A stretch of 64,000 bases of DNA from assembly GCA_964406895.1 (NCBI GenBank), contig CAYOTK010000006.1, positions 557-64,556 on the forward strand, read 5' to 3'. Each line of letters begins with the position of its first letter. Position 1 is the first letter of the stretch. Source of the stretch: an uncultured Candidatus Saccharibacteria bacterium (GTDB taxonomy: Bacteria > Patescibacteriota > Minisyncoccia > Phycocordibacterales > PALSA-1337). Both the position numbers and the translations under genes were made by a program. The notes under the pieces were generated by a model, which worked only from the letters and a program-made list of their open reading frames with translations, was not told where the DNA came from and ran no database searches. Of the stretch, positions 26,132-63,928 are shown in pieces.

Positions 26132-26172
26132 AGTGACGTTTGTGCTATAATTGAATTATAATAAATAAAAAA

Positions 26173-27687: not shown

Positions 27688-27690
27688 AAT

Positions 27691-28947
27691 ATGTTTTCTG
27701 CTCTCAATCTCAGAATTGGATTATTCCTAGCGATAAGACAAATCAAGAGGTCTAGCAAATGGACCAATGGTCTTATTATTTTCGTCATGATACTTACCTT
27801 CTTGAATCTAGTTATCATTTCTGGGATTCTAGTTGGACTTATTCAAGGAGCTGTTGATTCTGTTAGGAAACAATATACAAGTGACGTCATCATATCTACT
27901 CTCAAAGACAAAACGTTCATTGAATATAGTCCGGAAATATTGAAAATACTAGAGAAAGTACCGGAAGTACAAAACGTCAGTCCGAGATATATAGGAGGTG
28001 CAGTATTAGAAGCTAATTACAAAGAAAAAATCAACGATACAGACAAACCCAATACAGCAAATGCACAAATCGTCGGCATAAATCCAGAAGCAGAAGATGC
28101 AATTACAAATCTCAGTAAATTCGTCATAGAAGGTTCATATCTACAACCGAATGATTATGACCAAATACTTCTTGGTTCATATCTCTTGAAGAAATATTTA
28201 CCCGTCGACTCTCCAGGATTTAGTGCTCTCTATAACGTAGAAGTAGGTAGTAAAATAAGAATCAAAATTAACGGCGTCAATCGTGAAGTAACAGTCAAAG
28301 GCATCATAAAAACCAAAACTGATGAGGTCAGTATGCGCGCTTTCATGGTTGATACACAGCTACGAAGTATCATAGGCAGGAATGATTTCAACGTTTCAGA
28401 GATTTCAGTCAAACTCAAAGACGGTGTAGACCCTGCGCATGTACGAGATTATTTGAAAACAAACGGTATTGATAAATTCGCAAAAGTCCAAACCTATACA
28501 GATGCCGAACCCAAGTTCATCAAAGACATGATGAATACCTTTGCTCTTCTCGGTAATCTTATCAGTTCGATAGGCCTTGCTGTGGCTTCTATCACAATAT
28601 TCATTGTTATATTCATTAACGCTCTTACACGCAGGAAATATATTGGCATATTGAAAGGCATAGGAATAAGCGGTGAAGCCATAGAAGTTTCTTATATTTT
28701 CCAATCAATATTTTATTCGGTTACAGGATCTATTATTGGCTTTGTCGTGTTGTATGCAGTGCTCCAGCCAACAATTGCTGCTCACCCTATAAACTTCCCA
28801 TTCAGTGATGGCATTCTAGTCGCACCTCTTTCTGGCACATTTTTCCGCATTGCCCTTCTTGTCATTGCTACCGTCATTGCAGGTTATATTCCTGCCAGAA
28901 TGATTGTCAGAAAAAATACCCTAGATTCCATACTAGGTAGAAAATAA
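27691..28947 (+). CDS. ABC transporter permease, FtsX/MacB-like
   Basis: N-terminal TM, large extracytoplasmic domain, 3 C-terminal TM helices; 418 aa; start is 4 nt after the adaptor gene. Confidence 0.75.
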   Translation: MFSALNLRIGLFLAIRQIKRSSKWTNGLIIFVMILTFLNLVIISGILVGLIQGAVDSVRKQYTSDVIISTLKDKTFIEYSPEILKILEKVPEVQNVSPRYIGGAVLEANYKEKINDTDKPNTANAQIVGINPEAEDAITNLSKFVIEGSYLQPNDYDQILLGSYLLKKYLPVDSPGFSALYNVEVGSKIRIKINGVNREVTVKGIIKTKTDEVSMRAFMVDTQLRSIIGRNDFNVSEISVKLKDGVDPAHVRDYLKTNGIDKFAKVQTYTDAEPKFIKDMMNTFALLGNLISSIGLAVASITIFIVIFINALTRRKYIGILKGIGISGEAIEVSYIFQSIFYSVTGSIIGFVVLYAVLQPTIAAHPINFPFSDGILVAPLSGTFFRIALLVIATVIAGYIPARMIVRKNTLDSILGRK

Positions 28948-28951
28948 AAAT

Positions 28952-29632
28952 ATGATTAAAACAAAAAATCTAAAAAAATCATTCCAGAATGGAAACATTC
29001 AAACAGAAATACTCAAAGGTATTGATTTCGAGGTATCCGCAGGTGAATTCATCGCTATCATGGGAAGATCTGGAGCCGGAAAAAGTACTTTCATGTATCA
29101 AATCAGCTTATTGGATGAACCAACTAGTGGCGAAGTTATCATAGACGGAACCAATACACACAACATGTCCAATGAAGAAAAAACTTCTTTCCGACTAACT
29201 AAACTCGGCTACGTATTCCAGGACTATGCTCTCATACCAGAATTAACAGCCCTAGAAAATGTTGCCCTGCCCCTACTCATGCAGAGTGCTCCGAAAGAAA
29301 AAGCCTTTCGAGTTGCTACCGAGGCTCTTACAAAAGTTGGTCTTGGTGATCATTTATCGCAATTGCCTAGCCAACTTTCTGGTGGTGAACAACAAAGAGT
29401 CAGTATATCGAGAGCTATCGCTCACAAACCAGAAATCCTTTTCGCCGATGAGCCCACTGCAAATCTAGATAATGAGTCATCGAAAACTGTCATGGCTATT
29501 TTCGATCAGCTTCATAAAGAAGGTCAAACTATAATCATGGTCACTCATGAAGAGCAATATGCAAAAATGTCAGAGAAAATCATCAAACTTGATGATGGAA
29601 GAATAGTTGAAGAGATACGAAATAAGAAATAA
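28952..29632 (+). CDS. ABC transporter ATP-binding protein (MacB/LolD-type)
   Basis: Walker A GRSGAGKST, ABC signature LSGGEQQRVSISRA, Walker B ILFADEPTANLD, H-loop VTHE. Confidence 0.9.
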   Translation: MIKTKNLKKSFQNGNIQTEILKGIDFEVSAGEFIAIMGRSGAGKSTFMYQISLLDEPTSGEVIIDGTNTHNMSNEEKTSFRLTKLGYVFQDYALIPELTALENVALPLLMQSAPKEKAFRVATEALTKVGLGDHLSQLPSQLSGGEQQRVSISRAIAHKPEILFADEPTANLDNESSKTVMAIFDQLHKEGQTIIMVTHEEQYAKMSEKIIKLDDGRIVEEIRNKK

Positions 29633-29721
29633 AAACATTGACAGTAAGCGATTTTTATTCTAATGTATACACAGAACGGTTGCCGAACCGTCCGGATGGT
29701 ATGAAGTATTTGTGGACATGA

Positions 29722-30459
29722 TTGTCTACAGATGGCCGCAAGCCCATACTCCGAAAAGAGGCATTTGACATTATGACGCTACCTGAAATGTTGGACGCGA
29801 TTCCGCCCGAGTGGTTGGAGCGGTACGAGAAGACTCGAAAGGTCAAGCCGTACGAACTCCTCGCGGAGTACAAGAAGGTTGAGGGAAAAAACTACGGACT
29901 GAGAATGGTGTTCAAATTTTTGATTGGACTGGTATCAGCAGTATCGGTTTGCCTCCTCTTTCAACACAACAAATTGCATGATGAAAGGTCTGGCACAGAG
30001 ATAGTCAACCTGGCCCTCGTGCTGTTTATTGGTCTTCCCATTTGGTGGTGGATGAACCGCAGCGCCAGCAAGGAAGTTGCTCGATTGGAGTTGATCCACC
30101 AACTGGATAAAATCGGCGACGACATTCAGGCCTTGATCGACCTCGTCGGTGGTGAGAGGTGGTTAAACGATCATGGGATCAAGGGGGCCATGATCCGACT
30201 AGCCGGAGAAGCCGTCACGCAGGAAAAATTTATAGTAAAAATCGCCAAAAAAGTTGGGGACGGTGATCTCGAACTCGTCTACAAAATTCAAACTTGCATA
30301 GGCAATCTCAATTCGAAGGAGAAGGCCTACGAGAGAGCGATCAACCTGATCTGCTGTTTCGTTAATCCACCTTACGATTTCGAAAGGGCAAAAGAGTTGG
30401 CAAGAGAAGCCCTGCAGATCGGCGAACCCGACATCGCCGAAGAACAACCTCTCACCTGA
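29722..30459 (+). CDS. hypothetical membrane protein encoded in a GC-enriched (~50% GC) segment
   Basis: 245 aa, two central TM helices, compositionally atypical; own terminator downstream. Confidence 0.4.
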   Translation: MSTDGRKPILRKEAFDIMTLPEMLDAIPPEWLERYEKTRKVKPYELLAEYKKVEGKNYGLRMVFKFLIGLVSAVSVCLLFQHNKLHDERSGTEIVNLALVLFIGLPIWWWMNRSASKEVARLELIHQLDKIGDDIQALIDLVGGERWLNDHGIKGAMIRLAGEAVTQEKFIVKIAKKVGDGDLELVYKIQTCIGNLNSKEKAYERAINLICCFVNPPYDFERAKELAREALQIGEPDIAEEQPLT

Positions 30460-30483
30460 AAAGGTGCGAGGTAAGAACACAAA

Positions 30484-30516
30484 CCGGGAGGCTCACACCT
30501 CCCGCGTTTTTTTATT
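30484..30516 (+). terminator. rho-independent terminator
   Basis: cgggagg-ctcaca-cctcccg hairpin followed by TTTTTTTATTT. Confidence 0.7.
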
Positions 30517-30563
30517 TGAAATTATTATTTTTATGAAATTATTACAAAATTATTATAAGAATA

Positions 30564-31763
30564 TCAAATGTTCTTCCTAACAGTTCTTGAACTAAGATAG
30601 AAAAATACAAGACCAACAACAACGACAACACTCGCGCCAAGTAGGGCTACACTGGACCCATAAACTTGCCATACATAACCACCAACAATACCGGCAATCA
30701 TAGAACCAAAACCAATAGAGGCGTTGTAGAGACCATAAGCGGAGCCGCGGTCATATTCTGGGACAGTATGAGCAATGAAAGATCGCTGGGTAGCATCTGT
30801 ACAAGCAGAAAATACGCCCATAATGATGAATGAAAGCGCGAGAGATATTGCCGACGCAGACATGGCAATGGCAATATACGAAATAATAAGTATGACGTAA
30901 CCATATGCCAAAACTCTAGTTATACCAATACGATCACTGGTTTTACCTGCAAGATATGAAAAGCTAGAATAAGACAAACTATACAACATATAGAAAAGCG
31001 GGACTGAAGCAATAACAAGACCAATAGAAGTAGTTTTGAGTAGAAGAACAGCTGATGGCAAACTACCGATAGACAGAACGAAAATAGCGATCAAATAATA
31101 TTTGAATGCTAGAGACGAACGACTGAAATTGTTGAGATTAAATATTTTGGCACCGTGTTCATTCTTCATAGTCACAACTTCTTTGACAAAAAATATTGTT
31201 ACGAAAGAGATGATGCCTAGCACGAAAGCTGTCATGAAAAGCAAAGTCCAATTGTTGGGAGCCCGAGTAAGGATAATATATGCAACCAATGGACCCAGAA
31301 TACCACCTATAGTATCCATAGTTCTGTGATACCCGAAGGAGCGACCCATTTCATTTTCGGGAGAAGAAACAGAGATAATGACATCTCTAGGCGCTTCACG
31401 AACACCCTTACCTACCCTGTCCAAAATCCTAAGACCCAAAACTCCAGATACACTACTGGCCAAAATATAAAAAGGTCTTACAGTTACAGATAATCCATAC
31501 CCTAGGAATATAAAAGGCCTTCTTTTGGCCAACTTGTCAGAAAGTCTACCTGAATAAATCTTCAAGATATTAGATGCGCCATCCGCAATACCCTCAACAA
31601 GTCCCAAAGAAGCAGCGCCTGATTTCAATACCGAGGTAAAAAAAGCGGGAAAGGAAGATAGGATTATTTCATTGGAAAAGTCATTGAAGAAACTAGTGAG
31701 ACCGAGAATGAATATGTTTTTTTCTAGTCCAAATATTTTCTTTTTGCCGTCTTGCATAAGCAT
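30564..31763 (-). CDS. MFS transporter
   Basis: 12 predicted TM helices, 399 aa, conserved MFS loop between TM2 and TM3. Confidence 0.7.
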   Translation of the reverse strand: MLMQDGKKKIFGLEKNIFILGLTSFFNDFSNEIILSSFPAFFTSVLKSGAASLGLVEGIADGASNILKIYSGRLSDKLAKRRPFIFLGYGLSVTVRPFYILASSVSGVLGLRILDRVGKGVREAPRDVIISVSSPENEMGRSFGYHRTMDTIGGILGPLVAYIILTRAPNNWTLLFMTAFVLGIISFVTIFFVKEVVTMKNEHGAKIFNLNNFSRSSLAFKYYLIAIFVLSIGSLPSAVLLLKTTSIGLVIASVPLFYMLYSLSYSSFSYLAGKTSDRIGITRVLAYGYVILIISYIAIAMSASAISLALSFIIMGVFSACTDATQRSFIAHTVPEYDRGSAYGLYNASIGFGSMIAGIVGGYVWQVYGSSVALLGASVVVVVGLVFFYLSSRTVRKNI

Positions 31764-31765
31764 GA

Positions 31766-33496
31766 TTATAACACGCCGTATTTGCTGAGTCCTGTCAGAG
31801 CGCGAACAAGCTTGATCTCAGCATAAGAATAATTCGGGCCCAGTCTATCTTTGACTGGAAAAAGTAGTATTTTACCCTTCTCGTCATATATCTCTTGCAA
31901 AATAGATTTGATCTTCGCGAAATGAGCGTGACTTATCTCTGATTTCAAATATTTGATATCGACATTATAACCATCATGAACCAACTGATCTATATGACTT
32001 ATTATTGTTTCTCTATTCAATTTTCTTGCTTTTGCTATTTCTTCCAAGCTTTTCTTGTCCTGAATAAGAAGCGCCGTCTTCTCGTATGTGTTTATCTTTT
32101 TCTTTTTTTCTTTCTTAATCTTGGGTGATATTTTATATAGCGTTTCTCTTATTTCGAAGCTGTGTAATGGAGCAATTTTTGCTAAGAATTGTTTCTGAAC
32201 TCTAGATATTTCTTCACGGCCAATATTCTTGAGTCGTTGTTCAGCCATATCTGATTGTTTCCTCAATAATATATCGTGTTCGAGAATATCAGGATGAACC
32301 TTGAGAGCGTGTTCATTCAGGCCTAGAATTTTGAGGCCATTGAAATTGCGCACGCGAGACAATGCTACATAACCCATTCCAAGTTCAAATGATTTCGACA
32401 AGTCAACTTCGACCGCATCTAGACTCATTCCTTGGCTCTTATGAACTGTTATGGCCCAAGCCAATCGCAACGGATACTGATTGATCTCTGCAATGATCCT
32501 ACCGTTGTCTTCTATTACCCAACTCGCTCGCTCTATTCTGATTTGTTCGCCTTTGGCATTTTGTATTACTGGATCTATTCCCCATCCGCAACTAACAACC
32601 ACACCGAGTGTGCCGTTCACATAACCTTTATCAAAATTGTTCTTAACACACATTACTCTCGCGCCTTTTTTCAATCTGAGATTTTGAGGAGCCAAGCAGG
32701 TTTTCTTCAGCGTTTCTACTATGGCCTTTTTGCCTTTCGATGTCATTTCGTAAACTGCGTAATTGCCTTCTATCTTGTCTATTTCTTGATCGTTGATACC
32801 ATCTACATCTGCATTATGAGTATATAAAGATGTTGGTTGCACTGAATCATCAATTTTTGCGTTAAATCTTGTTTGTATTTGTCTTAAAGATTCCTCACTC
32901 AGAGATCCGCTACGAATTTCATTCAAAACATGAATAGAAATATCATCCTTTTGTCTGTGTTGTTCGGACAAATAACAAATTACAAAATTAGCTTCTTGCC
33001 ACGCCTTGGATCGATATGCAAAATACGCCTCGGGTTCTCCCGCTCTTCTCACAGGCGGTAATTGGAAAAAATCGCCACATAAAACAATTTGCACACCACC
33101 AAATGGCTTATCTTCACTCATATCTTTGCGTCTTATTTTGCGCATGATCTTGTCGAGTAAATCTAAACGATAATGATGCAACATGGATATTTCATCTATT
33201 ATGAGGACATGCACGCTCTGAACTTTTTTTGTTACGTATTTCTTTTCCAAAAGTTCTTCTAGTTCGTATTCATTCATGTCGTCTTTTACTCCCATTCCTG
33301 ACCATGAATGTATCGTTACACCGCCCATATGAGTAGCTGCAATGCCTGTAGAAGCGGTTATGCCTATTGCTACGTCATGTTCCCTAAGGAATTTGATGTA
33401 TTCATTGACTACGAAGGTTTTGCCACTGCCTGCTGGACCAGTGATAAACACATTCTTACCCATCTTCAATATATCTAATGCGTCTTTTTGAGTCAT
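31766..33496 (-). CDS. Pif1/RecD-family SF1 5'-3' ATP-dependent DNA helicase
   Basis: Walker A FITGPAGSGKTFV, Pif1 signature region GGVTIHSWSGMG, Walker B LIIDEISML, QLPPV motif; C-terminal HTH-like extension; 576 aa. Confidence 0.75.
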   Translation of the reverse strand: MTQKDALDILKMGKNVFITGPAGSGKTFVVNEYIKFLREHDVAIGITASTGIAATHMGGVTIHSWSGMGVKDDMNEYELEELLEKKYVTKKVQSVHVLIIDEISMLHHYRLDLLDKIMRKIRRKDMSEDKPFGGVQIVLCGDFFQLPPVRRAGEPEAYFAYRSKAWQEANFVICYLSEQHRQKDDISIHVLNEIRSGSLSEESLRQIQTRFNAKIDDSVQPTSLYTHNADVDGINDQEIDKIEGNYAVYEMTSKGKKAIVETLKKTCLAPQNLRLKKGARVMCVKNNFDKGYVNGTLGVVVSCGWGIDPVIQNAKGEQIRIERASWVIEDNGRIIAEINQYPLRLAWAITVHKSQGMSLDAVEVDLSKSFELGMGYVALSRVRNFNGLKILGLNEHALKVHPDILEHDILLRKQSDMAEQRLKNIGREEISRVQKQFLAKIAPLHSFEIRETLYKISPKIKKEKKKKINTYEKTALLIQDKKSLEEIAKARKLNRETIISHIDQLVHDGYNVDIKYLKSEISHAHFAKIKSILQEIYDEKGKILLFPVKDRLGPNYSYAEIKLVRALTGLSKYGVL

Positions 33497-33688
33497 GAAT
33501 GAATTCTACACTACTTCATAAGAAGAACACATAACATTTTTCGGATAATGAGAGGATAAACTGAGGATTATGTGTATTGACACCACAAACAATAGGAGTA
33601 ATCTTTCAGTTAGAACAGCATAGCAAAACAAACCCGTTCCGGTTTCAAAACTGGAACAGAAAGGCATCTCGAGAGAGATGAAAAATGT

Positions 33689-34309
33689 ATGAACGACAGA
33701 ACACCTGTTGGCCTAAGATTGATTCTGAATCGACACACCGGTGGTGGGACGGTCGGCGGAAATGTCGGCGGAGGATCCCCGACGGCAATACAGCCGAATC
33801 AATTCGGACTGCCGGATGATTTGGCGAACGCATTACTTCACCCGTTCTGGGATCTCAAGGAAAAAACCAGAGGTCCTTTCGTGGTCGGAGTAGTGGCCGA
33901 CTACGCCACCAGGTTGGTGCGACTGATAAACGCGGAAACGCAGATCGAGTCGGCCGTAAAGGTGGTCCTCGAGCAGTTCAATGGCAAACTTCGGGTGATC
34001 AGTTTTGCCATCGACCTTGAAAAGCACTGCTTCACCAGCATTACGATCAGGGTGGAACTCAACGGCCAGCCCCTGTATCCAGAAGCGCCGAGACCGCCCA
34101 ATCTGAGTGGCGACATCCGGCAAGCGGTTGCCGATGTTCTTCAGCCTCTCGGGATCACGCCACCACACATCATCATTCCGTCCGACTATTCGGAATCGCA
34201 TGAGCCCCAAGAAATCCAGAAGGGTGAACCGACGAGGCTCTCACCCCCTACTCAGCCAAGGGTAGCCGAAGTCGAAGCCGACACAGACGAGAGTGGGACT
34301 CCGAGTTAG
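33689..34309 (+). CDS. orphan hypothetical protein in a strongly GC-rich (~58% GC) island
   Basis: 206 aa ORF, G-rich N-terminus; flanked by its own terminator at 34361-34390. Confidence 0.35.
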   Translation: MNDRTPVGLRLILNRHTGGGTVGGNVGGGSPTAIQPNQFGLPDDLANALLHPFWDLKEKTRGPFVVGVVADYATRLVRLINAETQIESAVKVVLEQFNGKLRVISFAIDLEKHCFTSITIRVELNGQPLYPEAPRPPNLSGDIRQAVADVLQPLGITPPHIIIPSDYSESHEPQEIQKGEPTRLSPPTQPRVAEVEADTDESGTPS

Positions 34310-34360
34310 ACCATACCCTTTCCCCACAGTTAGCGGCAACTATGCCGACCCAATGCAAAC

Positions 34361-34390
34361 GCGCCACCCCCGTGGCGCGACCTTTTTTTA
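34361..34390 (+). terminator. rho-independent terminator of the GC-rich orphan gene
   Basis: gcgccac-cccc-gtggcgc hairpin followed by gaccTTTTTTTA. Confidence 0.7.
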
Positions 34391-34441
34391 TGCAAACAAA
34401 AAACATATCACCAAAGACAAGGAAAAAATGTGATCAAAATA

Positions 34442-34993
34442 TTATTTGAGATTAGTCCTACTCAAAGGCAAACCGAGATATTCCAAGAAAGCGAGTGTAT
34501 TATCTTTTTTATTTGAACTTGTAACTATAGTAACAGCAAAACCAAAAACATCCTTCAAATCTTCGTCGGAAGTTTCAGCAAATATTGTGTGTTCCTTGAT
34601 ACCGAATGTGAAATTACCCATAGCATCAACAGATTTCCTATTAATACCTCTGAAGTCTTTTGTACGAGGAAGAGCTACGTGTATGAGACGATCTAGGAAT
34701 TCACACATTCTCTTGCCCCTCAATGTGATTTGGTAACCAATAGCGTCACCTGTGCGTGTCTTGAATGTTGCAATGGCTTTCTTTGCAGAACGTACTGCAG
34801 GCTTCTGACCTGTGATCTTAGCTAGTCTATCAGCAATAAGATCAATTTTTCTCTTGTCTTTTATTGAACCGAAACCGTTAGATATAACAACTTTAACAAG
34901 CTTTGGGGCTTGCATTGGATTCTTGATAGAAAGCTTGTCTTTCAAAGCCTTGAATGAATCTCTATTCAATTCGTAAACTGTTTTGTAATTCAT
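34442..34993 (-). CDS. rplE: 50S ribosomal protein L5
   Basis: KNPMQAPKLVKVVISNGFG; 183 aa. Confidence 0.9.
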   Translation of the reverse strand: MNYKTVYELNRDSFKALKDKLSIKNPMQAPKLVKVVISNGFGSIKDKRKIDLIADRLAKITGQKPAVRSAKKAIATFKTRTGDAIGYQITLRGKRMCEFLDRLIHVALPRTKDFRGINRKSVDAMGNFTFGIKEHTIFAETSDEDLKDVFGFAVTIVTSSNKKDNTLAFLEYLGLPLSRTNLK

Positions 34994-34997
34994 GGTA

Positions 34998-35216
34998 TTA
35001 TTTTTGCTTTACTGCATTGGAAACATCGATAGGCATAGCGATATCTACTACTTGACCCTTCTGGCCTTGTTTCCTGGAACGCTCATGTTTCTTCATGACA
35101 TTGATACCTTCAACGACTATTTTGTTGAGAGCAGGAATAGCTTTGACAACCTTGCCCGTTCTGCCTTTGTCATCACCTGAAATTATTTTAACTGTATCGC
35201 CTTTTTTGATATTCAT
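34998..35216 (-). CDS. rplX: 50S ribosomal protein L24 (short form)
   Basis: KKGDTVKIISGDDKGRTGKVV KOW motif; 72 aa. Confidence 0.85.
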   Translation of the reverse strand: MNIKKGDTVKIISGDDKGRTGKVVKAIPALNKIVVEGINVMKKHERSRKQGQKGQVVDIAMPIDVSNAVKQK

Positions 35217-35220
35217 GGTA

Positions 35221-35592
35221 TTAGACTATTTCCGATGCCTTTGAAGCTATGGTCTTGAATCCGGCCTCTTGTACTTCTCTTGGTATAGGTCCGAATATAC
35301 GTCCTGCAATAGGCTCTTTCTTTAATTTTTCTATAATAACAACTGCATTCTCATCGAATCTGATATATGAACCGTCTTTTCTTCTGATTGGCTTGGTCTG
35401 TCTAACTATTACAGCATGCAAAACGTCTTTTTTCTTGATGGCTTTTCTTGGTTCTGCTTTCTGCACTGATAATACGACTACTTCACCAACTTCTGCGTAT
35501 CTCTTGTGACTTGCTCCAAGCACCTTGAAAATACGACCTATCTTGGCCCCTGAATTATCTGCGATTTTTACGATTGCGCGTGGTTGAAGCAT
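35221..35592 (-). CDS. rplN: 50S ribosomal protein L14
   Basis: MLQPRAIVKIADNSGAKIGRIFKVLG; 123 aa. Confidence 0.9.
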   Translation of the reverse strand: MLQPRAIVKIADNSGAKIGRIFKVLGASHKRYAEVGEVVVLSVQKAEPRKAIKKKDVLHAVIVRQTKPIRRKDGSYIRFDENAVVIIEKLKKEPIAGRIFGPIPREVQEAGFKTIASKASEIV

Positions 35593-35601
35593 GTTGGTAT
35601 A

Positions 35602-35862
35602 TTAAGCGATAACTTTGAATGACTTATTCTTGGACAAAGGTCTGCATGACTCGATCGTTACTTTGTCACCAATCTTCTTGGTATTACCTGGATCGTGAGC
35701 CATAAGTTTTGTCTTTCTATTCATGAATTTGTGGTATTTTGGGTGTTTCTCATAACGAGAAATAACAACAGTAACAGTGTCTTTCATTTTGTCTGAAGAA
35801 ACAACACCAGAGAATATCTGTCGCTTTGATTCATTATTTGTTTGTTTTGTTTCTGTTGTCAT
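35602..35862 (-). CDS. rpsQ: 30S ribosomal protein S17
   Basis: 86 aa, KQIFSGVVSSDKMKDTVTVVISRYEKHPKYHKF. Confidence 0.9.
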   Translation of the reverse strand: MTTETKQTNNESKRQIFSGVVSSDKMKDTVTVVISRYEKHPKYHKFMNRKTKLMAHDPGNTKKIGDKVTIESCRPLSKNKSFKVIA

Positions 35863-35874
35863 GTAACTATTTGA

Positions 35875-36066
35875 TTAGGATTTCTTGGTTGTATTCAAAA
35901 CAGTCAATATACGAGCTATGTCTTTGCGTATTTCTCTGCCCTGTTTCACATTCTTGGTCTTTGATCCAGACGCACCAAATCGAAAAACTCTGAGGGCCTC
36001 TCTTTTCTCTGCAACCATTTTATTCAGGTCTGCGGCTGTTTTGTTTGATATATCTTTTATTTTCAT
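35875..36066 (-). CDS. rpmC: 50S ribosomal protein L29
   Basis: MKIKDISNKTAADLNKMVAEKREALRVFRF; 63 aa. Confidence 0.85.
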   Translation of the reverse strand: MKIKDISNKTAADLNKMVAEKREALRVFRFGASGSKTKNVKQGREIRKDIARILTVLNTTKKS

Positions 36067-36125
36067 AAAAAATGCTCAATCGAGCTATGCCCCATGCTAA
36101 CAAAGACCATGAATAAAGTCAATTA

Positions 36126-37274
36126 CTATAAGCCATGCCTAGCGTCAAGACGACCCAGGACGTTTTCTCTCAATAAATTGGTTATTTTGTCTGCATCAGA
36201 CTTGGAAACCCCTTGTATCACAACCGCGTTTGATATTTCGAAATTTTTATTACTAGAGAAGTTTGGCACAGAAGTAGCGTTTTCTATTCTAACCTCTGCA
36301 ATTCCGAAAATTTTGCTTATTATATCCTGTTTGATCGTAACATCTTGAATAGTACTATATGGCATATGTTTCTCTGATAAAGAAAGCATACCGCTCCTGA
36401 AATATATATTATCGGACATGAATGAGAATTTGTAATTCTGCTTCCAGAGAAATAAGCCTATAATTCTAGCTGTAGTAGTTAACAATATTATCCCCAAGAA
36501 AACATACAATCCTCCGAAATCACCATTGTTATTGCTGACCAATATGCTTGTAGACACAATCACAGATATGGTCAGGAAACCCGCCAATATTTGGATAAGC
36601 GATATCATAAACCATTTACCAGTCAATGGATAAACATCACTTGATATTTCCTCTGATAAATTTATCTCAATATTCTTGGGTTTTTGTTCATTTGTTGTAG
36701 CTGTAGTATCACTATGCATCGTGGACATGGTTCCGCCCCTACTCACACCCACGACCTTATTTAACAAATAATCTTTAAGACCATTAGCAACATCTATATC
36801 AACCCCATCTATATGAGCAGCTATGCCAGAAGAAAAAGTTGCACTAGCAATATGAACATCACAAAGACCCATCATTCTATCTAGGATATCTTGATCCACA
36901 TAAACATCTTGAATTTTTTGCCATTGAACGTGTATTTCCGCAGGTGCAAAGACCCCCTTCTTAATAGTAAGGAAGTTGTCATCAGCTGAATAGTAATATC
37001 TTTTGATATATTCTCGGACGTATATAATATATGGCAAAATCACTATCAAAAAACCAATAATAAACAGTACTCCCGCCAAAACAAGCAGAAGTGGCACACT
37101 GAATTTCTTGCTTATGAAAATACCGACATAAACAGTCGAAGCGGTTGCCGACAATATAAAACCGAACATGAAAGCACTTATTGCTTTTTCTATGATCTTT
37201 TTCCAAAACTTTTTTGGACTAAGTGGGAAATTCTTTTGTAAATCACTAACTATATTTTGATTATTCATATACAT
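36126..37274 (-). CDS. membrane protein with tandem bacterial PH (bPH_2/YdbT-like) domains, inserted between rpmC and rplP
   Basis: 382 aa; two copies of the TM-hairpin-plus-PH-like module (e.g. FLTIKKGVFAPAEIHVQWQKIQDVYVDQDILDRMMGLCDVHIASA). Family assignment is from pattern recognition, not a search. Confidence 0.5.
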   Translation of the reverse strand: MYMNNQNIVSDLQKNFPLSPKKFWKKIIEKAISAFMFGFILSATASTVYVGIFISKKFSVPLLLVLAGVLFIIGFLIVILPYIIYVREYIKRYYYSADDNFLTIKKGVFAPAEIHVQWQKIQDVYVDQDILDRMMGLCDVHIASATFSSGIAAHIDGVDIDVANGLKDYLLNKVVGVSRGGTMSTMHSDTTATTNEQKPKNIEINLSEEISSDVYPLTGKWFMISLIQILAGFLTISVIVSTSILVSNNNGDFGGLYVFLGIILLTTTARIIGLFLWKQNYKFSFMSDNIYFRSGMLSLSEKHMPYSTIQDVTIKQDIISKIFGIAEVRIENATSVPNFSSNKNFEISNAVVIQGVSKSDADKITNLLRENVLGRLDARHGL

Positions 37275-37333
37275 ATCTTACAACAAAAAAGCAGATTTCG
37301 CTCTGCTTTTTTGTCACTAAGAGTTTGAGAATA

Positions 37334-37759
37334 TTAAACTCGACTTATTATTTTGGTTTTGACTGGAAGCTTCGTACCAGCTTTTATGAGGGCTTCACTT
37401 GCTGTTTTTGCATCAACACCGTCGATTTCGAACATTATGCGTCCAGGACGAACTTCAGCAACGAAACCTACAGGATCACCTTTTCCTTTACCCATTTTTA
37501 CTTCTGCTGGCTTCTGAGTAAATGGATGATCCGGGAAGACTCTGATCCAGAGTTTGCCTGTCTTAGAAACGTATCTGGTCAATACTTTACGAGAAGCTTC
37601 AATTTGGTTCGATGTTATTCTTGCATAATTGACGGCTTTCAAACCGAAAGACCCGAAAGAGAGTCTTACACCTCTTGTCTCATGCTTGTTGGCCTCCTTT
37701 ACAGGATGCTTACGCTTTGTGAACCACTTGCGATGTTTTACTTTCTTTGGGAATAACAT
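37334..37759 (-). CDS. rplP: 50S ribosomal protein L16
   Basis: MLFPKKVKHRKWFTKRKHP ...; 141 aa. Confidence 0.9.
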   Translation of the reverse strand: MLFPKKVKHRKWFTKRKHPVKEANKHETRGVRLSFGSFGLKAVNYARITSNQIEASRKVLTRYVSKTGKLWIRVFPDHPFTQKPAEVKMGKGKGDPVGFVAEVRPGRIMFEIDGVDAKTASEALIKAGTKLPVKTKIISRV

Positions 37760-37773
37760 GATAGTTAATTAAA

Positions 37774-38445
37774 TTATTTCTTTTGATCTTTACTGAAAAT
37801 CTCACCCTTGTATATCCAAACCTTGATACCTATATCTCCATATGTCATATGAGCCTTCTCGCGGGCGAAATCAATATCTGCACGCAATGTTTGCAAAGGT
37901 ATTTGGCCTTTCTTAAGCTCTTCACTGCGAGCAATATCGGCACCACCCAATCTTCCACCAAGTCTAATGCGAATACCCTTGACCTCTTTGTTTGCCATGA
38001 CTTTTTCGATGGTCTGCTTCATGACTCTTCTGAATGGCAATCTCTTTTCGAGTGCTTCTGCTATCATCATTCCTGCAATAGCTGCGTTTGATTCTGGGTT
38101 ACGAACTTCTTCTATGTCTATTTTGAGTTCTTGATTACCAAGACTGATTTTGTTTTTCTTGATAAGAGTCAATACTTTCTCTCTCAGCTTGACTACTCCA
38201 TCCCCCGCCTTACCGATAAGCATACCTGGACGTGAAGTCTTGATCACGACTCTGATTGCTTTTTGGTTTCTTTCAATATCCACGCCACCTACATAGAACG
38301 CTCTTAGCTCTTTCTGCAAGAATTCACGGATCAAAAGATCTGTTTTCAATGCATTTCTGTATGATTTGTCCGTAGCAAACCAGCGACTCTTCCAGTCTCT
38401 GATGATGCCTAGTCTATGTGAATATGGGTGAACTGTATGTGACAT
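37774..38445 (-). CDS. rpsC: 30S ribosomal protein S3
   Basis: KH domain and C-terminal S3 domain; 223 aa. Confidence 0.9.
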   Translation of the reverse strand: MSHTVHPYSHRLGIIRDWKSRWFATDKSYRNALKTDLLIREFLQKELRAFYVGGVDIERNQKAIRVVIKTSRPGMLIGKAGDGVVKLREKVLTLIKKNKISLGNQELKIDIEEVRNPESNAAIAGMMIAEALEKRLPFRRVMKQTIEKVMANKEVKGIRIRLGGRLGGADIARSEELKKGQIPLQTLRADIDFAREKAHMTYGDIGIKVWIYKGEIFSKDQKK

Positions 38446-38449
38446 AATA

Positions 38450-38839
38450 TTATTTTTTAATTTTCTTGGTTGATTTTGTGACAGGCTTTGAAGCTTTCTT
38501 TGCTTTTGATTCTGCTGGTGCCAAAACTATACTTATATGACTTGTCTTCTTCTTGATAGGATGTGCAGAACCCCTAGAAACAGGCATGAATCTCTTCATG
38601 ACCAAACCCTGATCAACTCTTATCTCTTTTATGAAAAGTGAATCTTTTTCCATCTTGAAATTGTTGACGGCATTTGCAATAGCGGAATCGATCAAATTTG
38701 AAATTGGATGTCTGCCTGCCTTGAGAGCATTTGCCAACAAGTCCTTTGCAATCAAAACGTTTTTACCTCTTACCATATCTGCTACTAGTCTGGCTTTACG
38801 AGGTGATATTCTGAAGTTTTTTAGAGATGCTGTAATCAT
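38450..38839 (-). CDS. rplV: 50S ribosomal protein L22
   Basis: MITASLKNFRISPRKARLVADMVRGKNV; 129 aa. Confidence 0.9.
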   Translation of the reverse strand: MITASLKNFRISPRKARLVADMVRGKNVLIAKDLLANALKAGRHPISNLIDSAIANAVNNFKMEKDSLFIKEIRVDQGLVMKRFMPVSRGSAHPIKKKTSHISIVLAPAESKAKKASKPVTKSTKKIKK

Positions 38840-38844
38840 GGTGG

Positions 38845-39192
38845 TTATTTCTTAGTGGCTGTTGTTGCTGCTTCTTTTGCTGATTTTGCTGCTGCCATTT
38901 CGGCCTCTTTGGCTTTCATTTCGATCTCCTTCTGCATCTTACCACCATGTCTTATAAATTTGCGTGTAGGAGAAAATTCGCCCAAACGATGACCTACCAT
39001 GTCTTCTGTTACGAAAACCTCAACATGTTGTCTGCCGTTGTGAACTCCGAAGGTGAAACCTACCATTTCAGGAGCTATCTGACTTGCTCTTGCCCATGTC
39101 TTAATAACACCACCTGTTCCAGGCTTCTTGCCACCGATTTTTTTCATCAGCTTTTCATCAACGTATGGACCTTTCTTTAGTGAGCGAGCCAT
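38845..39192 (-). CDS. rpsS: 30S ribosomal protein S19 with A/K/E-rich C-terminal tail
   Basis: [19 protein letters not shown] ... [29 protein letters not shown]. Confidence 0.9.
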
Positions 39193-39374
39193 TGGTAATT
39201 GGTTATTAGTTCTTGGTAATTAGTAATCTCACAACAATAATATTATCTATATAAATATGTGTTGTTTTTGGAATAAAATAAGCTCTAACGAGCTAAGTAG
39301 CATACTAACAGAGCCGTATTTCGAAGTCAAGGCGTTATTATTGTTCCATCATTGAATATTAGAAAGTTTATGAG

Positions 39375-39540
39375 AAAACTCACGAATTGTATGATTTGAG
39401 GACCATTTCGCAAAGCACCATGTACTATTAGTTTGAATGATCACTCTCAGATGGTGCTGCGAATAGACAGCCCCATCGACTCTTCCCCTATTGTCGATGG
39501 GGCTGATCGTGGTCCTCAAATCATACAATTCGTGAGTTTT
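39375..39540. repeat. 166-bp element bounded by perfect 31-bp inverted repeats with internal 13-bp stem-loop, inserted between rpsS and rplB
   Basis: aaaactcacgaattgtatgatttgaggacca (39375-39405) is exactly reverse-complemented at 39510-39540; inner cagccccatcgac / gtcgatggggctg (39468-39480 vs 39493-39505). Confidence 0.7.
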
Positions 39541-39565
39541 CTTGATTATTTAAGTATAAAAATTA

Positions 39566-39591
39566 GGAGGGGTAATGCGCATTACCCCTCC
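39566..39591 (+). promoter_or_regulatory. 26-nt perfect palindrome sequestering an SD-like sequence and an ATG (ggaggggtaATGcgcattacccctcc), with an 11-codon mini-ORF
   Basis: Exact self-complementarity read directly; AGGAGG then ATG 6 nt later; ORF MRITPPPDCKS*. Confidence 0.3.
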
Positions 39592-40021
39592 CCCTGATTG
39601 CAAAAGCTAAGGGACTCAGGCTGTGTCCCGCGCCCATAGATATTGTTAAATGTGCTTTGAAGTTGATCACCGTCCGATACGATAACCAAATCACCTGCAT
39701 TTGGCGCTATGTGTATGTGTAAGCACGTTTGGAACGGAGCATGCTATTTATTACGGAGTTGCAACTTTTCCGTCTTCATTCTGCACGTCGCTCCAAAAAC
39801 ACCGACACATCCACCGTGTCCTTTGGGCCCATGACACAACAGATGATATTTGGAATATAGCATTTTGCAAAGATAAATCAAATCGATAAATTGTAATATA
39901 GAAATATTGATGCTTGGAAAAAACACAAAAAGTCCTGCATTTTGTATTTTTCCTTATTGTTACCAATATTATTTATGAAACACGAGTTGCATCGACGTTA
40001 TTTTTATACTAGATTATATGC

Positions 40022-40423
40022 ATGACCATAGACACAAAATCTCACTCAACTAAAATAAAATCACCATATAATATATTCTATATACCGCATATTTATTGGT
40101 TTGGCTTAACTACCAGAATATGTCTATATGCTTTAGCACTATTTTACTTTATATCCTACAACTATAAGATAGTTGTCAGTGCACACAATACATCCTCATC
40201 AAATTCATTAATTATAATGATTGTTACAATTGTTGGGATTATAGGAATGTTTGCTGGATTATTTTTTATTGAAAAATCTAGACGTTACATAATACTATCT
40301 TTTTGGGCGGCATTTGGTCTACTAAGTATTATCGTGTATTTAACTTTATTGACTGTTTTACCGATATTGTCCGGGTATATATCAATTTCATTATTGTTTG
40401 GACCAGCCTTTCGCGGTTATTAG
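40022..40423 (+). CDS. small hydrophobic membrane protein (133 aa), opposite strand to the r-protein genes
   Basis: Three or four predicted TM helices; AT-rich; no recognisable motif. Confidence 0.35.
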   Translation: MTIDTKSHSTKIKSPYNIFYIPHIYWFGLTTRICLYALALFYFISYNYKIVVSAHNTSSSNSLIIMIVTIVGIIGMFAGLFFIEKSRRYIILSFWAAFGLLSIIVYLTLLTVLPILSGYISISLLFGPAFRGY

Positions 40424-40433
40424 ATTTAAACAT

Positions 40434-41724: not shown

Positions 41725-41732
41725 GGTATTAA

Positions 41733-43067: not shown

Positions 43068-43083
43068 GGTATTTCTTTATTTC

Positions 43084-62628: not shown

Positions 62629-62739
62629 CGTTCTAAGTTCACATACATATTGACATCAAAACTACTCCATGTCAACCGTCCGTTATGTTTCAATGCCTTT
62701 GCAACACCTGTCACTTTTTAGTATTGAAATGACAACAAA

Positions 62740-62772
62740 AAGGCCGGAGCGCGCACGCACGCTCCGGTTTGA
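62740..62772 (-). terminator. rho-independent terminator for the 341-aa GC-rich gene
   Basis: ccggagcg-cgcacgca-cgctccgg hairpin; on minus strand followed by TTTTTGTTGTC. Confidence 0.6.
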
Positions 62773-62808
62773 AATTGGCGACACCCGAGGGTGTCTCGGA
62801 AAACAGAC

Positions 62809-63834
62809 CTACATACCATGCATACTCAGAGGGGTTGAGGTCGTATCCTGACCCACTCCGCCGTCACCGGCATTCAGATAGTCAATCGGCGGTCCCATCT
62901 TTCTGACCGGTTCTCCGCCGTTGAGAACCTGAAGAAGGGTGCCGATGATCCTCGCTTCGCTGAGCGGTCCATCTTCAGCAGTATCCAAGATCGAATCGTA
63001 GTGTTCTTGAATCGTCTGGACTGAAACGCACGGCTCAGCCAGACGCCTGATGAGGCCGGCATACCTGACGGCATCGTCAAGTCCCAACAATCGCAGTACA
63101 CAGGCCAGTTGACCCTGATTGAAAGCGAGCGCCTGCGGCGCCTGCGCTTCCAAGGCCACCACAAGCAGGTCTCTTACTGTCGGTCCCAACCCACGAGGAT
63201 TATTGTGGGCGAGATCAAGCAACAGGCCCTTGAACTGCGCAACCGTAACCAACGGCGGCGCCGGATCTTCCCTCTGCGGTTTCGGCGGCAGGACCACCAT
63301 CTGTTGCGCAGCCAGGGACGCAGGAATCTGAAGATCGTCGGTGTACGCGAGTTCTTTGTGACGCGGGGCAATGTCATTCGCCAGCCGTATGATTGTCTGG
63401 ATAGTTCTTTCATCACTAGACGCCCTTTTGATCGCAGCCGTAACCGCAGGCGCGTGATTAGCCAACACCGTTAACAAATGACCGGTGTCGATCTTCGAAC
63501 GACCTGAGGCATGTGCTTCCCGTTCGACCGAGTCCATAAGCACCCTCATCGTATCGGACAGGTCATCGCTGGAAACGTTGCAATCACGGATGAGCCAATC
63601 CGTCATACCATGAGATATGCGGAGCGGATCTACGAGGTGCAATTCTTCAAGGACGCTGAAAGCCACTGTAAGACGGATCGACAGCAGCCCCCGAAACACA
63701 TCGTCAGATTCGACGCGTCCAGCACCACCCCACTGAGCATGACCCTTCGCCCACCTCAAAACCCGCAAGGAGGCAGCTGTGAACGTTCTATCACTTATTT
63801 CAAACGGCATAGTTTTACCTTTCCCTTCAATCAA
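62809..63834 (-). CDS. orphan hypothetical protein in ~60% GC island; weak resemblance to Clp N-terminal repeat domains
   Basis: 341 aa; segments FTAASLRVLRWAKGHA ... and IDTGHLLTVLANHA are reminiscent of Clp_N repeats (low confidence). Confidence 0.35.
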   Translation of the reverse strand: MIEGKGKTMPFEISDRTFTAASLRVLRWAKGHAQWGGAGRVESDDVFRGLLSIRLTVAFSVLEELHLVDPLRISHGMTDWLIRDCNVSSDDLSDTMRVLMDSVEREAHASGRSKIDTGHLLTVLANHAPAVTAAIKRASSDERTIQTIIRLANDIAPRHKELAYTDDLQIPASLAAQQMVVLPPKPQREDPAPPLVTVAQFKGLLLDLAHNNPRGLGPTVRDLLVVALEAQAPQALAFNQGQLACVLRLLGLDDAVRYAGLIRRLAEPCVSVQTIQEHYDSILDTAEDGPLSEARIIGTLLQVLNGGEPVRKMGPPIDYLNAGDGGVGQDTTSTPLSMHGM

Positions 63835-63928
63835 CCCTCATTGGCTGATCGAGTTTGTCACAGATTACAATGAAGAATATGCCGATGTCAATATTCCGCG
63901 CCCCACCTTTACCTCATATAATACATCC

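Follow-up and report, generated by a model that had tools for sequence, protein, structure and literature searches.

A GC-rich orphan gene between the Pif1 helicase gene and rplE as a probable allelic-replacement hot spot in one genus of Patescibacteria

Replacement-type hypervariable loci with discrete allele classes are known from several bacteria, and include the agr specificity groups of staphylococci, the comQXP pherotypes of Bacillus, and the 'replacement' flexible genomic islands. A second kind of precedent combines variability with unusual base composition. The vls cassettes of Borrelia contain 49% GC in a genome of 28.6% GC, with a coding-strand GC skew of about 0.52, and their high GC content has been argued to be actively maintained and tied to gene conversion (PMC11499132). 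Elevated GC3 is also found more broadly, in the recombining genes of 11/14 bacterial taxa (PMC4450053). For Patescibacteria, a literature search on genes that are hypervariable or GC-rich turned up no account of a pattern such as that of ORF206, a GC-rich gene of 206 codons examined here within a window of 64,000 nucleotides (the whole stretch of DNA that was analysed). The features of the locus are as follows.

31766..33496, minus strand: Pif1-family helicase gene (PF05970, E 3.5e-41), left flank, divergent from ORF206
33575..33607, plus strand: promoter-like block, TATTGACAC-N4-AACAATAGGAGTAATCTTTC, invariant except for N4
33636..33657, plus strand: 5'-UTR hairpin 1, stem of 7-9 bp, pairing in all alleles compared
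33665..33680, plus strand: 5'-UTR hairpin 2, 6-bp stem with a GNRA tetraloop, pairing in all alleles compared
33689..34309, plus strand: ORF206 coding sequence, an open frame with codon-periodic substitution and an AF2-predicted core
34310..34359, plus strand: 3' UTR, non-coding, GC 0.52, hypervariable
34360..34389, plus strand: intrinsic terminator, 8-bp stem (7 GC pairs), 4-nt loop, and T7 run, kept in all alleles
34442..34993, minus strand: rplE (Pfam Ribosomal_L5 / Ribosomal_L5_C), right flank, convergent with ORF206

A sequence-only reading of this DNA had described an orphan protein gene of atypical composition, with its own terminator, between the Pif1 gene and rplE, and this description was borne out. 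The GC content of ORF206 is 0.559, against 0.387 for the window, and its GC3 reaches 0.62, where the window median is 0.34 (MAD-sd 0.05; shift +0.25). The gene uses non-optimal, GC-ending codons in an AT-rich genome. The proposed value of ~58% GC over 860 bp fits the core of the island (33740-34382, 0.575) but not the whole segment 33560-34420, which reaches 0.525. Across 700-nt windows, GC averages 0.386 (sd 0.041); the island reaches 0.573, and values of at least 0.50 occur only there and at 62.35-63.95 kb. Base composition changes sharply at the 3' side of the island. The composition, which had been called completely foreign to this genome, is anomalous but not unique in the window, as two other GC-rich orphan genes, orf245 and ORF341, show the same GC3 anomaly. 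In distant relatives such GC3 outliers are scarce (3/~297 ORFs).

ORF206 forms a complete, monocistronic, and single-copy expression unit, consisting of a promoter-like block, a structured 5' UTR, the coding sequence, and a terminator. The promoter block contains a -35 element TTGACA (33577-33582), a 16-nt spacer, and a -10 element TAATCT (33599-33604). Outside N4 it is the same in 8/8 aligned alleles, and it is unique in the window. Since a generic sigma-70 scan does not call the block, whose -10 element matches at 3/6 positions, we can only infer promoter function; transcription would start near 33611. Downstream, hairpin 1 (-11.5 kcal/mol, z -3.4) has three pairs that changed on both sides (UA/CG, CG/UA, CG/UA), and hairpin 2 (-8.1 kcal/mol, z -4.7) has one compensatory pair and one wobble change, with few independent events underlying this covariation. 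The tetraloop of hairpin 2 reads GAGA, GUAA, or GAAA depending on the allele, and its 3' arm (GAGAUG or GAGGUG) is the Shine-Dalgarno sequence, located 8-9 nt upstream of the ATG. Judged from its sequence, this hairpin may sequester the ribosome-binding site and so gate translation. At the other end of the unit, the protein tail and 3' UTR occur as three unrelated sequence types among the alleles. As the 3' UTR is itself GC-rich and hypervariable, composition and variability belong to the DNA segment and not to the protein alone. The terminator (-15.8 kcal/mol, z -3.4), with its stem at 34360-34379 and T-run at 34383-34389, was recovered by an unbiased scan and is as clean as had been stated.

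ORF206 encodes a small soluble protein whose hydrophobic core is conserved, whose surface varies, and whose ends are disordered. Its N-terminus is indeed G-rich (HTGGGTVGGNVGGGSP), with residues 1-38 disordered. It is followed by a predicted alpha/beta core at residues ~62-165 (helix-strand-strand-helix-strand) and by a disordered Pro/acidic tail (residues 169-206). The AF2 model assigns the core a pLDDT of 82-94, the core modelled by itself reaches pLDDT 80 and pTM 0.69, and the invariant residues follow a heptad-like hydrophobic pattern. Premature stops truncate the tail in L007 (TAC>TAA) and L020 (CAA>TAG), and the tail is therefore dispensable in these two alleles. No significant domain was found in Pfam, PHROGs, PADLOC, or NCBIfam, in agreement with the sequence-only reading, and PDB sequence profiles gave a best E of 0.54. 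The remote homology search that had been proposed returned matches in Foldseek to generic alpha/beta domains only, none of them significant (full model against PDB and BFVD, core-only model against PDB; best E 0.02-0.07, TM <=0.41). OsmC, RbfA/KH-like, ANL C-terminal domain, and CDF-transporter CTD folds were considered, and none gave a significant structural or profile match. A known anti-phage defence or toxin-immunity module found no support either, given the lack of a PADLOC match, the neighbouring Pif1 and rplE genes, and the monocistronic unit. Neither a secretion signal nor an interaction partner nor a known domain was found for ORF206.

The most distinctive property of the locus emerges when strains are compared, using seven distinct ORF206 alleles. 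Flanks that are 97-99.5% identical enclose islands that are 60-75% identical, and the synonymous divergence of ORF206 exceeds that of the flanks 5- to 20-fold. Between the window and L013, dS and dN are 0.54 and 0.28 in ORF206 against 0.025 and 0 in rplE; between the window and L017, dS is 0.70 against 0.127 in Pif1; and between L007 and L014 it is 0.36 against 0.107 in Pif1 and 0.034 in rplE. The alleles are also mosaic. Along the gene, the nearest neighbour of the window allele changes five times, and a PHI-type statistic of 0.395 compares with 0.580±0.007 under permutation (0/2000 permutations as low). The core sequences fall into haplogroups A and B, which are about 55% identical in DNA; these combine with tail types 1, 2, and 3 in all six possible ways, and each haplogroup occurs in both flank-defined sub-lineages. 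Adjacent accession numbers suggest that single sequencing projects yielded different alleles. Individual alleles are stable, as carriers of P0007 show 0/923 mismatches in the island while differing at 14/1731 positions in Pif1 and 12-13/552 in rplE. Strains that share an allele are identical over a tract from -400 to +1029 (counted from the ATG), which ends ~200 nt into the Pif1 gene and ~300 nt into rplE. The locus is thus mosaic through recombination and is not hypermutating.

Two properties of replacement loci were found at ORF206, namely an excess of allele divergence over that of the flanks and mosaic alleles that cross lineages. By analogy, the locus resembles agr, comQXP, and the replacement islands in its fixed chromosomal position with conserved flanks and deeply diverged homologous alleles, and likewise in its trans-lineage polymorphism, homologous shuffling within the locus, and stable alleles. 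It differs from them in that ORF206 is a lone small soluble orphan without a recognisable signalling, receptor, or surface-biosynthesis function, in its strongly raised GC content, and in sharing its promoter type with two unlinked loci. The explanation favoured here, which we consider rather probable as a whole, is that ORF206 is a real orphan gene at an allelic-replacement hot spot that serves as a strain-specificity determinant. Old, deeply diverged alleles and allele modules would persist in the population, each of them stable, and homologous recombination would move and reshuffle them between strains in tracts of about 1.4 kb. Such tracts would end in conserved sequence, formed on one side by the 5' end of Pif1 with the promoter and 5' UTR and on the other by the terminator and rplE, with Pif1 and rplE acting as the two homology arms for allele exchange. 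A capacity for DNA uptake is indicated by the presence of ComEC and RecJ. Balancing or negative frequency-dependent selection may retain the alleles, with a phage, host cell, or competitor as the antagonist. The descriptive part of this explanation is very probably correct; purely from this pattern, we infer that ORF206 may determine strain specificity in an antagonistic interaction, a tentative proposal to which we give somewhat less than an even chance.

ORF206 is not the only gene of its kind, being one of at least three in the window that share a promoter layout, a GC content of ~55%, and the same behaviour in the population. The other two units are the following.

29638..30514, plus strand: sister unit 1, with promoter layout 29638-29666, orf245 29722-30459, and terminator ~30485-30514
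62737..63891, minus strand: sister unit 2, with promoter layout 63862-63891, ORF341 62809-63834, and terminator 62737-62767

The product of orf245 is a two-TM orphan of 245 aa encoded by a GC-rich gene (GC3 0.60), and ORF341 encodes 341 aa (GC3 0.58, likely start 63810) with a weak Clp_N-like domain. Both vary between strains as ORF206 does. Between L007 and L014, orf245 is 61% identical within flanks of 98-98.5%; ORF341 has 60% DNA identity between the window and L055, where recJ has 98.6%, and 59.5% between L054 and L055, where TIM/PGK/HIT have 97-99%. The motif TTGACA-N16-18-TAATNT, a pattern defined post hoc from the three genes, occurs three times in 64 kb, where 0.38 occurrences would be expected, and in all three cases a GC-rich orphan gene lies downstream. 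A common mobile cassette for the three units was considered and rejected, as upstream alignment shows homology in the promoter hexamers only. A broader and more doubtful possibility is that ORF206, orf245, and ORF341 form a co-regulated set of 'allelic cassettes', an undescribed CPR strain-specificity system with frequency-selected, transformation-swapped alleles and recombination-linked GC content. Such a system would govern compatibility with host cells, phages, or rival strains, or would protect against them.

The main alternative retains a foreign source. An unsampled reservoir of ~55% GC, whether a mobile element, a phage, or another lineage, would have supplied members of a gene family repeatedly to this locus, which is an older and repeated version of the acquisition idea of the sequence-only reading. 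The composition is compatible with this, since GC1/GC2/GC3 values of 0.62/0.44/0.62 resemble those of an ordinary gene at equilibrium in a ~55% GC genome, and the three GC-rich genes have similar GC3 (0.58-0.62). Polarised singleton changes are biased as amelioration predicts (73 GC-to-AT versus 46 AT-to-GC, with control genes too sparse for comparison), and the core haplogroups are more diverged than the genus itself. The distribution of the gene, however, argues against such a source. More than 20 independent metagenome contigs, covering two sub-lineages of one Paceibacteria genus, carry ORF206 at this locus, and all related contigs that extend across the locus contained it; any donor would need the same flanks. 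Its homologues form six other clusters (53-68% identity), all of them between Pif1 and rplE. Outside this exact locus none was found in about 15 billion proteins, and a profile search of 1.84 billion representative proteins, together with protein-level scans of viral and metagenome contigs, recovered no relative beyond the syntenic family, leaving the proposed high-GC donor or phage without a candidate. An exact-match probe with the promoter block gave 0 matches in genome-contig and metagenome-contig collections, which indicates that those collections do not contain this clade. ORF206 is thus a true orphan that is restricted to a single genus-level clade of Paceibacteria (Patescibacteria/CPR), and the suspicion that its homologues might be ordinary conserved CPR proteins did not hold.

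The gene is also not recent but ancient within the genus, because the same locus, promoter block, and terminator are found in two sub-lineages with saturated synonymous sites in Pif1 (pS 0.74-0.76), and all alleles in both are GC-rich (GC3 0.55-0.63). The idea of a recent horizontal acquisition fails on this point. With a classical acquired island the locus shares atypical composition, orphan content, and a position beside a conserved operon. It differs in that no strain without ORF206 was seen among the related contigs, in the lack of donor homologues in the databases searched, and in being GC-richer, and not AT-richer, than its host. No mobility, phage, or reverse transcriptase genes were found among the annotated ORFs of the window, and no repeats, att-like sites, or tRNA target at the island. 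The sole tRNA is located at position 8266. Native sequence surrounds the gene, its promoter, UTR, and terminator all being conserved and set in an AT context. A suggested functional link to the helicase did not survive either: 33 Pif1 loci of more distant Paceibacteria lack ORF206, only one of them has rplE nearby, beside a different gene, and the adjacency of Pif1 and ORF206 is merely shared ancestry inside one genus. Repeated import from a foreign pool is therefore unlikely. Overall, the observation made in the sequence-only reading holds and its interpretation mostly fails; it also missed the hypervariability, the mosaic recombination, and the membership of ORF206 in a class of three units.

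A second alternative, which we regard as quite unlikely, dispenses with balancing selection altogether and treats ORF206 as a dispensable, weakly constrained gene, shaped by relaxed selection and sporadic introgression from diverged congeners, with the likeness in GC content and promoter being incidental. It is favoured by dN/dS values of 0.35-0.60 in all regions, by the two alleles with truncated tails, and by the lack of a known domain. No region has a mean dN/dS above 1, so diversifying selection receives no regional support, and relaxed constraint acting on old alleles fits these values equally well. Relaxed selection cannot, however, yield a synonymous divergence so far above that of the flanks, and ORF206 has retained its hydrophobic core, reading frame, UTR hairpins, promoter, and terminator. 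The recurrence of the same pattern at three loci of one promoter type, and the spread of an identical allele over diverged backgrounds, also speak against it.

Localised hypermutation in situ, by a transcription-coupled or diversity-generating system, has already been largely refuted and is very improbable. Its appeal lies in a variable zone that falls between the promoter/UTR and the terminator, with the non-coding 3' UTR inside it, in a unit whose promoter appears strong. Yet many independent samples yielded identical islands (0/923, 0/892, and 0/900 mismatches), also in cases of 1-2% difference between the flanks, and otherwise different alleles have blocks of 95-100% identity in common. 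The targets of diversity-generating retroelements in CPR bacteria offer a likeness, as rapidly varying proteins in CPR genomes. In contrast to these, the annotated ORFs include no reverse transcriptase, the window and related loci contain no template repeat, and the variation is mosaic and covers the whole gene and 3' UTR, with stable alleles.

Reading the GC-rich block as a structured non-coding RNA, whose ORF would be an accident of its GC content, is already disfavoured, and we consider this extremely improbable. In AT-rich genomes GC-rich blocks are often RNA genes, and the fold z-scores are low for the whole unit (-4.5 and -3.8) and for the coding sequence (-2.6 and -2.8), against +0.7 for rplE. 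Folding is just as good on the antisense strand (z -3.9), however, and because the modest signal in the coding sequence (z ~-2.7) is strand-symmetric, it is not evidence for an RNA gene. Rfam yielded no match, whether the gathering threshold was applied or E values up to 10 were allowed, and the body of the unit is too divergent for a common RNA fold, conserved structure being confined to the two 5'-UTR hairpins and the terminator. ORF206 is instead a real coding gene: no frame but the sense one stays open in every allele (7/7, with a chance probability of 3e-5 to 7e-4 each), codon third positions are the most variable, dN/dS between alleles is 0.27-0.70, and the predicted protein core is confident. 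An antisense ORF (125-214 codons) was rejected as a gene, as it is not conserved among the alleles. Finally, a chimeric misjoin of a GC-rich fragment, suggested by the abrupt composition change at the 3' side and raised as a concern in the sequence-only reading, has a negligible probability, since the same junctions recur in the independent contigs from at least four assembly sources and pipelines (JGI, ENA with SPAdes and MEGAHIT names, and Logan) and the sequence passes without a break from the promoter block and from the terminator into the adjoining flank.

Under the favoured explanation of allelic replacement, the GC-richness of ORF206 would be maintained over the long term and would not be left over from a recent transfer. 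It might arise as a by-product of recurrent heteroduplex repair between diverged alleles, that is, by GC-biased conversion, or it might be a requirement of the exchange process itself; for the cassette set, local GC content would similarly be caused by, or needed for, the recombination of highly diverged alleles. The comparison with the vls cassettes of Borrelia is instructive here. Both are GC-rich variable coding regions in AT-rich genomes, with segmental recombination and retention of helical framework residues. Unlike vls, ORF206 has no silent cassettes or paralogues across the window and 20 related loci, all its database homologues sit at the expression locus, its coding-strand GC skew is -0.003 and not about 0.52, no lipoprotein signal is visible, and its variation is seen between strains. 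As expected under the hypothesis of GC-biased gene conversion, GC-richness coincides with the recombining segment, but the youngest changes are net GC-to-AT. This flux in singletons runs against a strong ongoing GC-biased process for the youngest changes.

A composition anomaly beside a conserved operon is, by itself, not evidence for recent horizontal transfer. The coincidence of hypervariability, mosaic recombination, and a GC3 shift of +0.25 in an AT-rich genome would make this locus a sharp natural test case for whether recombination raises the GC content of bacterial DNA or whether diverged alleles can recombine only through GC-rich DNA. If the cassette-set reading were true, few natural examples of recombination-linked GC elevation in bacteria would be as strong. 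Most CPR/Patescibacteria are episymbionts that have not been cultured, and to our knowledge little has been established about what determines their strain-level specificity for partners or phages. Near-clonal backgrounds, with flanks of 98-99.5% identity, that carry versions of a few orphan genes only about 60% identical point directly to candidate specificity determinants, which may be tracked in metagenomic time series and could be tested by allele swaps.

The GC-rich island around ORF206, an orphan open reading frame of 206 aa, is hypervariable relative to its flanks, and this is the key finding of the analysis. The ORF is real and, as a sequence-only reading had described, lies between a Pif1-family helicase gene and rplE and is followed by a clean terminator, an arrangement confirmed by the ORF itself, by Pfam naming of the neighbours and by an unbiased terminator scan.

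Neighbourhood of ORF206
31766-33496, minus strand: Pif1-family helicase gene, neighbour of ORF206
33689-34309, plus strand: ORF206
34360-34379 (stem) and 34383-34389 (T-run): intrinsic terminator, fold -15.8 kcal/mol
34442-34993, minus strand: rplE, neighbour of ORF206

The same reading had put GC at ~58% over 860 bp; the segment is indeed GC-rich, but its 861 bp average 0.525 against 0.387 for the window, and a value near the one claimed (0.575) is found only over 33740-34382. ORF206 itself has a GC of 0.559 and a GC3 of 0.62, compared with a window median GC3 of 0.34. In 700-nt windows (mean GC 0.386, sd 0.041), values of at least 0.50 occur only at the ORF206 island and at 62.35-63.95 kb.

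ORF206 belongs to a block at ~24.97-34.44 kb (DUF5671, HlyD, MacB/FtsX, ABC ATPase, orf245, MFS transporter, Pif1, ORF206) that separates rplE from rpsN within the ribosomal-protein operon; beyond it the operon continues with rpsN (24787-24972), rpsH, rplF, rplR, rpsE and secY. This ~9.5 kb block, with its HlyD-MacB-ABC efflux genes, is one of three breaks in the S10-spc cluster (24787-43458). The second, between rpmC and rplP, is a 382-aa bPH_2 membrane-protein gene (36126-37274) missing from some related contigs (L007, L008, L011), and the third, which parts rpsS from rplB, is ~1.2 kb long and contains a 133-aa ORF on the opposite strand (40022-40423). The usual fusA-tuf adjacency is also broken, by two large genes for PG_binding_1-domain proteins of 514 and 1065 aa (44869-49684, minus strand) between fusA (49774-51918) and tuf (43451-44635). 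The window further carries a tmRNA gene (12360-12941, minus strand; Rfam 99 bits) with one of its few perfect sigma-70-like promoters upstream (TTGACA-N18-TATAAT, 12912-12941), and a tRNA-Ile with anticodon TAT (UAU) (8266-8340, minus strand), an uncommon means of reading AUA in bacteria.

ORF206 is protein-coding. The sense frame is the only one that is open in every one of the seven distinct alleles (chance probability 3e-5 to 7e-4 per allele), most variation falls at third codon positions, dN/dS is 0.27-0.70 (Nei-Gojobori), and the invariant residues fit a hydrophobic helix and strand pattern. AlphaFold2 predicts an ordered core at ~62-165 (helix, beta-hairpin, helix, strand; pLDDT 82-94) between disordered termini, and a core-only model gives pLDDT 80 and pTM 0.69. 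Structured RNAs often account for GC-rich blocks in AT-rich genomes, and the folding of the transcript is somewhat stronger than that of shuffled controls (whole unit z -4.5 and -3.8, CDS alone z -2.6 and -2.8, rplE z +0.7); this lends an RNA-gene reading no support, however, since the antisense strand folds likewise (z -3.9), and an Rfam search of the island returned no family at the gathering threshold and none at E up to 10. The chimeric join that the sequence-only reading had raised as a possible artefact is excluded by the homologues of ORF206: among 5.8 billion protein clusters searched, six match it (53-68% identity), each of them located between Pif1 and rplE, and the contigs that carry them number over 20 and come from assemblies of JGI, ENA (names in SPAdes and MEGAHIT style) and Logan.

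The anatomy of the expression unit was read from an alignment of eight alleles with flanks.

Elements upstream of the ORF206 start
33575-33607: invariant 33-nt block, TATTGACAC-N4-AACAATAGGAGTAATCTTTC, with TTGACA, a 16-nt spacer and TAATCT; putative promoter
33636-33657: hairpin 1, three pairs with changes on both sides
33665-33680: hairpin 2, GNRA tetraloop in every allele (GAGA, GUAA or GAAA)

Both hairpins lie in a 5' UTR of ~77 nt, and 104/104 of their pair cells are standard, against 32-43% with partners slid by 1-3 columns, with few independent compensatory events. The Shine-Dalgarno sequence is the 3' arm of hairpin 2, which would occlude it. Next come the CDS, a 3' UTR that is both GC-rich and variable, and the conserved terminator.

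Divergence of flanks and island in pairs of related contigs
Window and L013: rplE 99.5% DNA identity, dS 0.025, dN 0; island 74.7% DNA and 58.5% protein identity, dS 0.54, dN 0.28
Window and L017: Pif1 97.2% DNA identity, dS 0.127; island 62% DNA identity, dS 0.70
L007 and L014: Pif1 dS 0.107, rplE dS 0.034; island dS 0.36, dN 0.25

The window allele is a mosaic whose nearest relative changes along the gene from L013 to L020/L017, L014/L013, L020/L001 and then L017, shared blocks being 95-100% identical and the remainder 45-55%. The cores form two deep haplogroups at ~55% DNA identity, A (window, L001, L020) and B (L007, L013, L014, L017), each present in both flank-defined sub-lineages, and the tail with the 3' UTR occurs in three types, all six core-tail combinations being present among seven alleles. 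A PHI-type permutation test was significant, at 0.395 against 0.580±0.007 (0/2000 permutations as low), and the four-gamete test is failed by 58% of informative site pairs.

The alleles are discrete and stable, and homologous recombination carries them between backgrounds, because the island is identical where flanks differ. Same-allele contigs from independent samples are identical over the full intergenic span, even with differing flanks; carriers of the allele P0007 have 0/923 mismatches in the island, with 14/1731 differences in Pif1 and 12-13/552 in rplE, which argues against hypermutation. In L007, L009 and L011 an identical tract of ~1.4 kb spans about -400 to +1029, counted from the ORF206 ATG, and ends within Pif1 and rplE; outside it their flanks differ by 1-2%, and the tract is the mark left by either a gene-specific sweep or a recent import through recombination. 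No silent copy of the island was found, and the annotated ORFs of the window include no reverse transcriptase, recombinase, transposase or phage gene. DNA uptake is plausible because ComEC (competence channel) and RecJ genes are present; they cluster with an RNase H-like gene at 57890-62410 (minus strand), which is consistent with alleles being exchanged by way of DNA uptake and processing. In JGI sample 3300045356, identity to the window is 98.6% for recJ (L055) and just 77% for Pif1 (L001), reflecting either two congeneric species together in the sample or locus-dependent relatedness.

By all searches run, ORF206 is an orphan. Nothing beyond its own family came up when 1.84 billion representative proteins were searched exhaustively with a HMMER profile, Pfam, PHROGs, PADLOC, NCBIfam and the PDB sequence profile gave no significant match, and scans of viral and metagenome contigs found no relative, so that the proposed phage or high-GC donor found no backing. 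The Foldseek matches in PDB and BFVD were all to generic alpha/beta domains of the two-layer kind, namely OsmC, RbfA, the ANL C-terminal domain and CDF-transporter C-terminal domains, with E 0.02 or worse and TM at most 0.41. The source organism is a CPR bacterium of Paceibacteria/Parcubacteria type, with Pif1 at most 59% identical to the closest named genomes. ORF206 is absent from all 33 of their Pif1 loci, and in the closest named relative, L050, rplE is adjoined by a different, convergent orphan gene; the suggested functional link to the helicase is therefore unsupported. The L050 gene (1118-2014, minus strand) encodes a 298-aa Cys-rich protein with a weak DnaJ CXXCXGXG-like match and is mildly GC-elevated. 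The slot after rplE may be recurrently filled by lineage-specific genes.

Two explanations of the GC-richness stand. All ORF206 alleles have a GC3 of 0.55-0.63, and the non-coding 3' UTR is also GC-rich and variable; the composition therefore belongs to the DNA segment and not to the protein alone. It may be maintained and tied to recombination between diverged alleles, either through GC-biased heteroduplex repair, as in the bacterial gBGC hypothesis (GC3 higher in recombining genes in 11/14 taxa; PMC4450053), or because conversion would require GC-richness, an argument made for the vls cassettes of Borrelia (GC 49%, genome GC 28.6%; PMC11499132). Alternatively, an unsampled pool of ~55% GC may have supplied the locus repeatedly, which would fit the codon-position GC profile of ORF206 and the net GC-to-AT direction of singleton changes (73 vs 46); the total absence of non-syntenic ORF206 homologues speaks against this. 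The single recent transfer favoured by the sequence-only reading is rejected, as one locus is common to two sub-lineages with saturated Pif1 synonymous sites (pS 0.74-0.76) and GC3 stays within the same range throughout.

ORF206 is one of a class and no one-off.

Other GC3 outliers of the window
29722-30459, plus strand: orf245, two-TM protein, GC3 0.60; unit 29638-30514
62809-63834, minus strand: ORF341, weak Clp_N-like domain, GC3 0.58; likely start 63810
Beside ORF341: ORF82, small ORF, GC3 outlier

Both orf245 and ORF341 are clade-restricted orphans, hypervariable with conserved flanks. Between L007 and L014, orf245 is 61% identical and its flanks 98-98.5%; ORF341 has 60% DNA identity between the window and L055, against 98.6% for recJ, 40% protein identity in strains with this recJ DNA identity, and 59.5% between L054 and L055, against 97-99% for TIM/PGK/HIT. 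ORF82, likewise highly divergent (44% DNA identity), shares with ORF341 a second GC-rich island (62380-63891, minus strand) between recJ and a HIT-family gene past the window end. The pattern TTGACA-N16-18-TAATNT, partly post hoc in that it was set after viewing the three genes' upstream regions, occurs three times in 64 kb against 0.38 expected (0/100 shuffles with three). All three sites lie directly upstream of ORF206, orf245 and ORF341, the motif is kept in other strains, and each unit ends with a GC-stem terminator. The orf245 unit combines TTGACA-N17-TAATGT, a 5'-UTR hairpin and a terminator, and its 5' end in the window is seemingly frameshifted relative to other alleles (L001: MAESPYSEKRH...). 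The upstream regions share no homology outside the hexamers; the three units are not copies of one mobile cassette. Comparable GC3 outliers number 3 among ~297 ORFs at 32 loci of more distant Paceibacteria.

Regional dN/dS is 0.35-0.60 along the whole of ORF206 and 0.02-0.07 in flank genes, and therefore does not demonstrate positive selection; the disordered tail is missing in two alleles. Old allele classes, cross-lineage polymorphism, free module shuffling and single-allele spread are together typical of balancing or negative frequency-dependent selection. The best inference is that ORF206 is a putative determinant of strain specificity in antagonism with a phage, host cell or competitor, in which the fold would be conserved, the surface variable and translation gated by the Shine-Dalgarno hairpin. 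The original observation is thus confirmed, its proposals of recent transfer, of a phage or high-GC donor and of a helicase link are not supported, and what emerged at the ORF206 locus is of greater interest than a simple foreign island would be.
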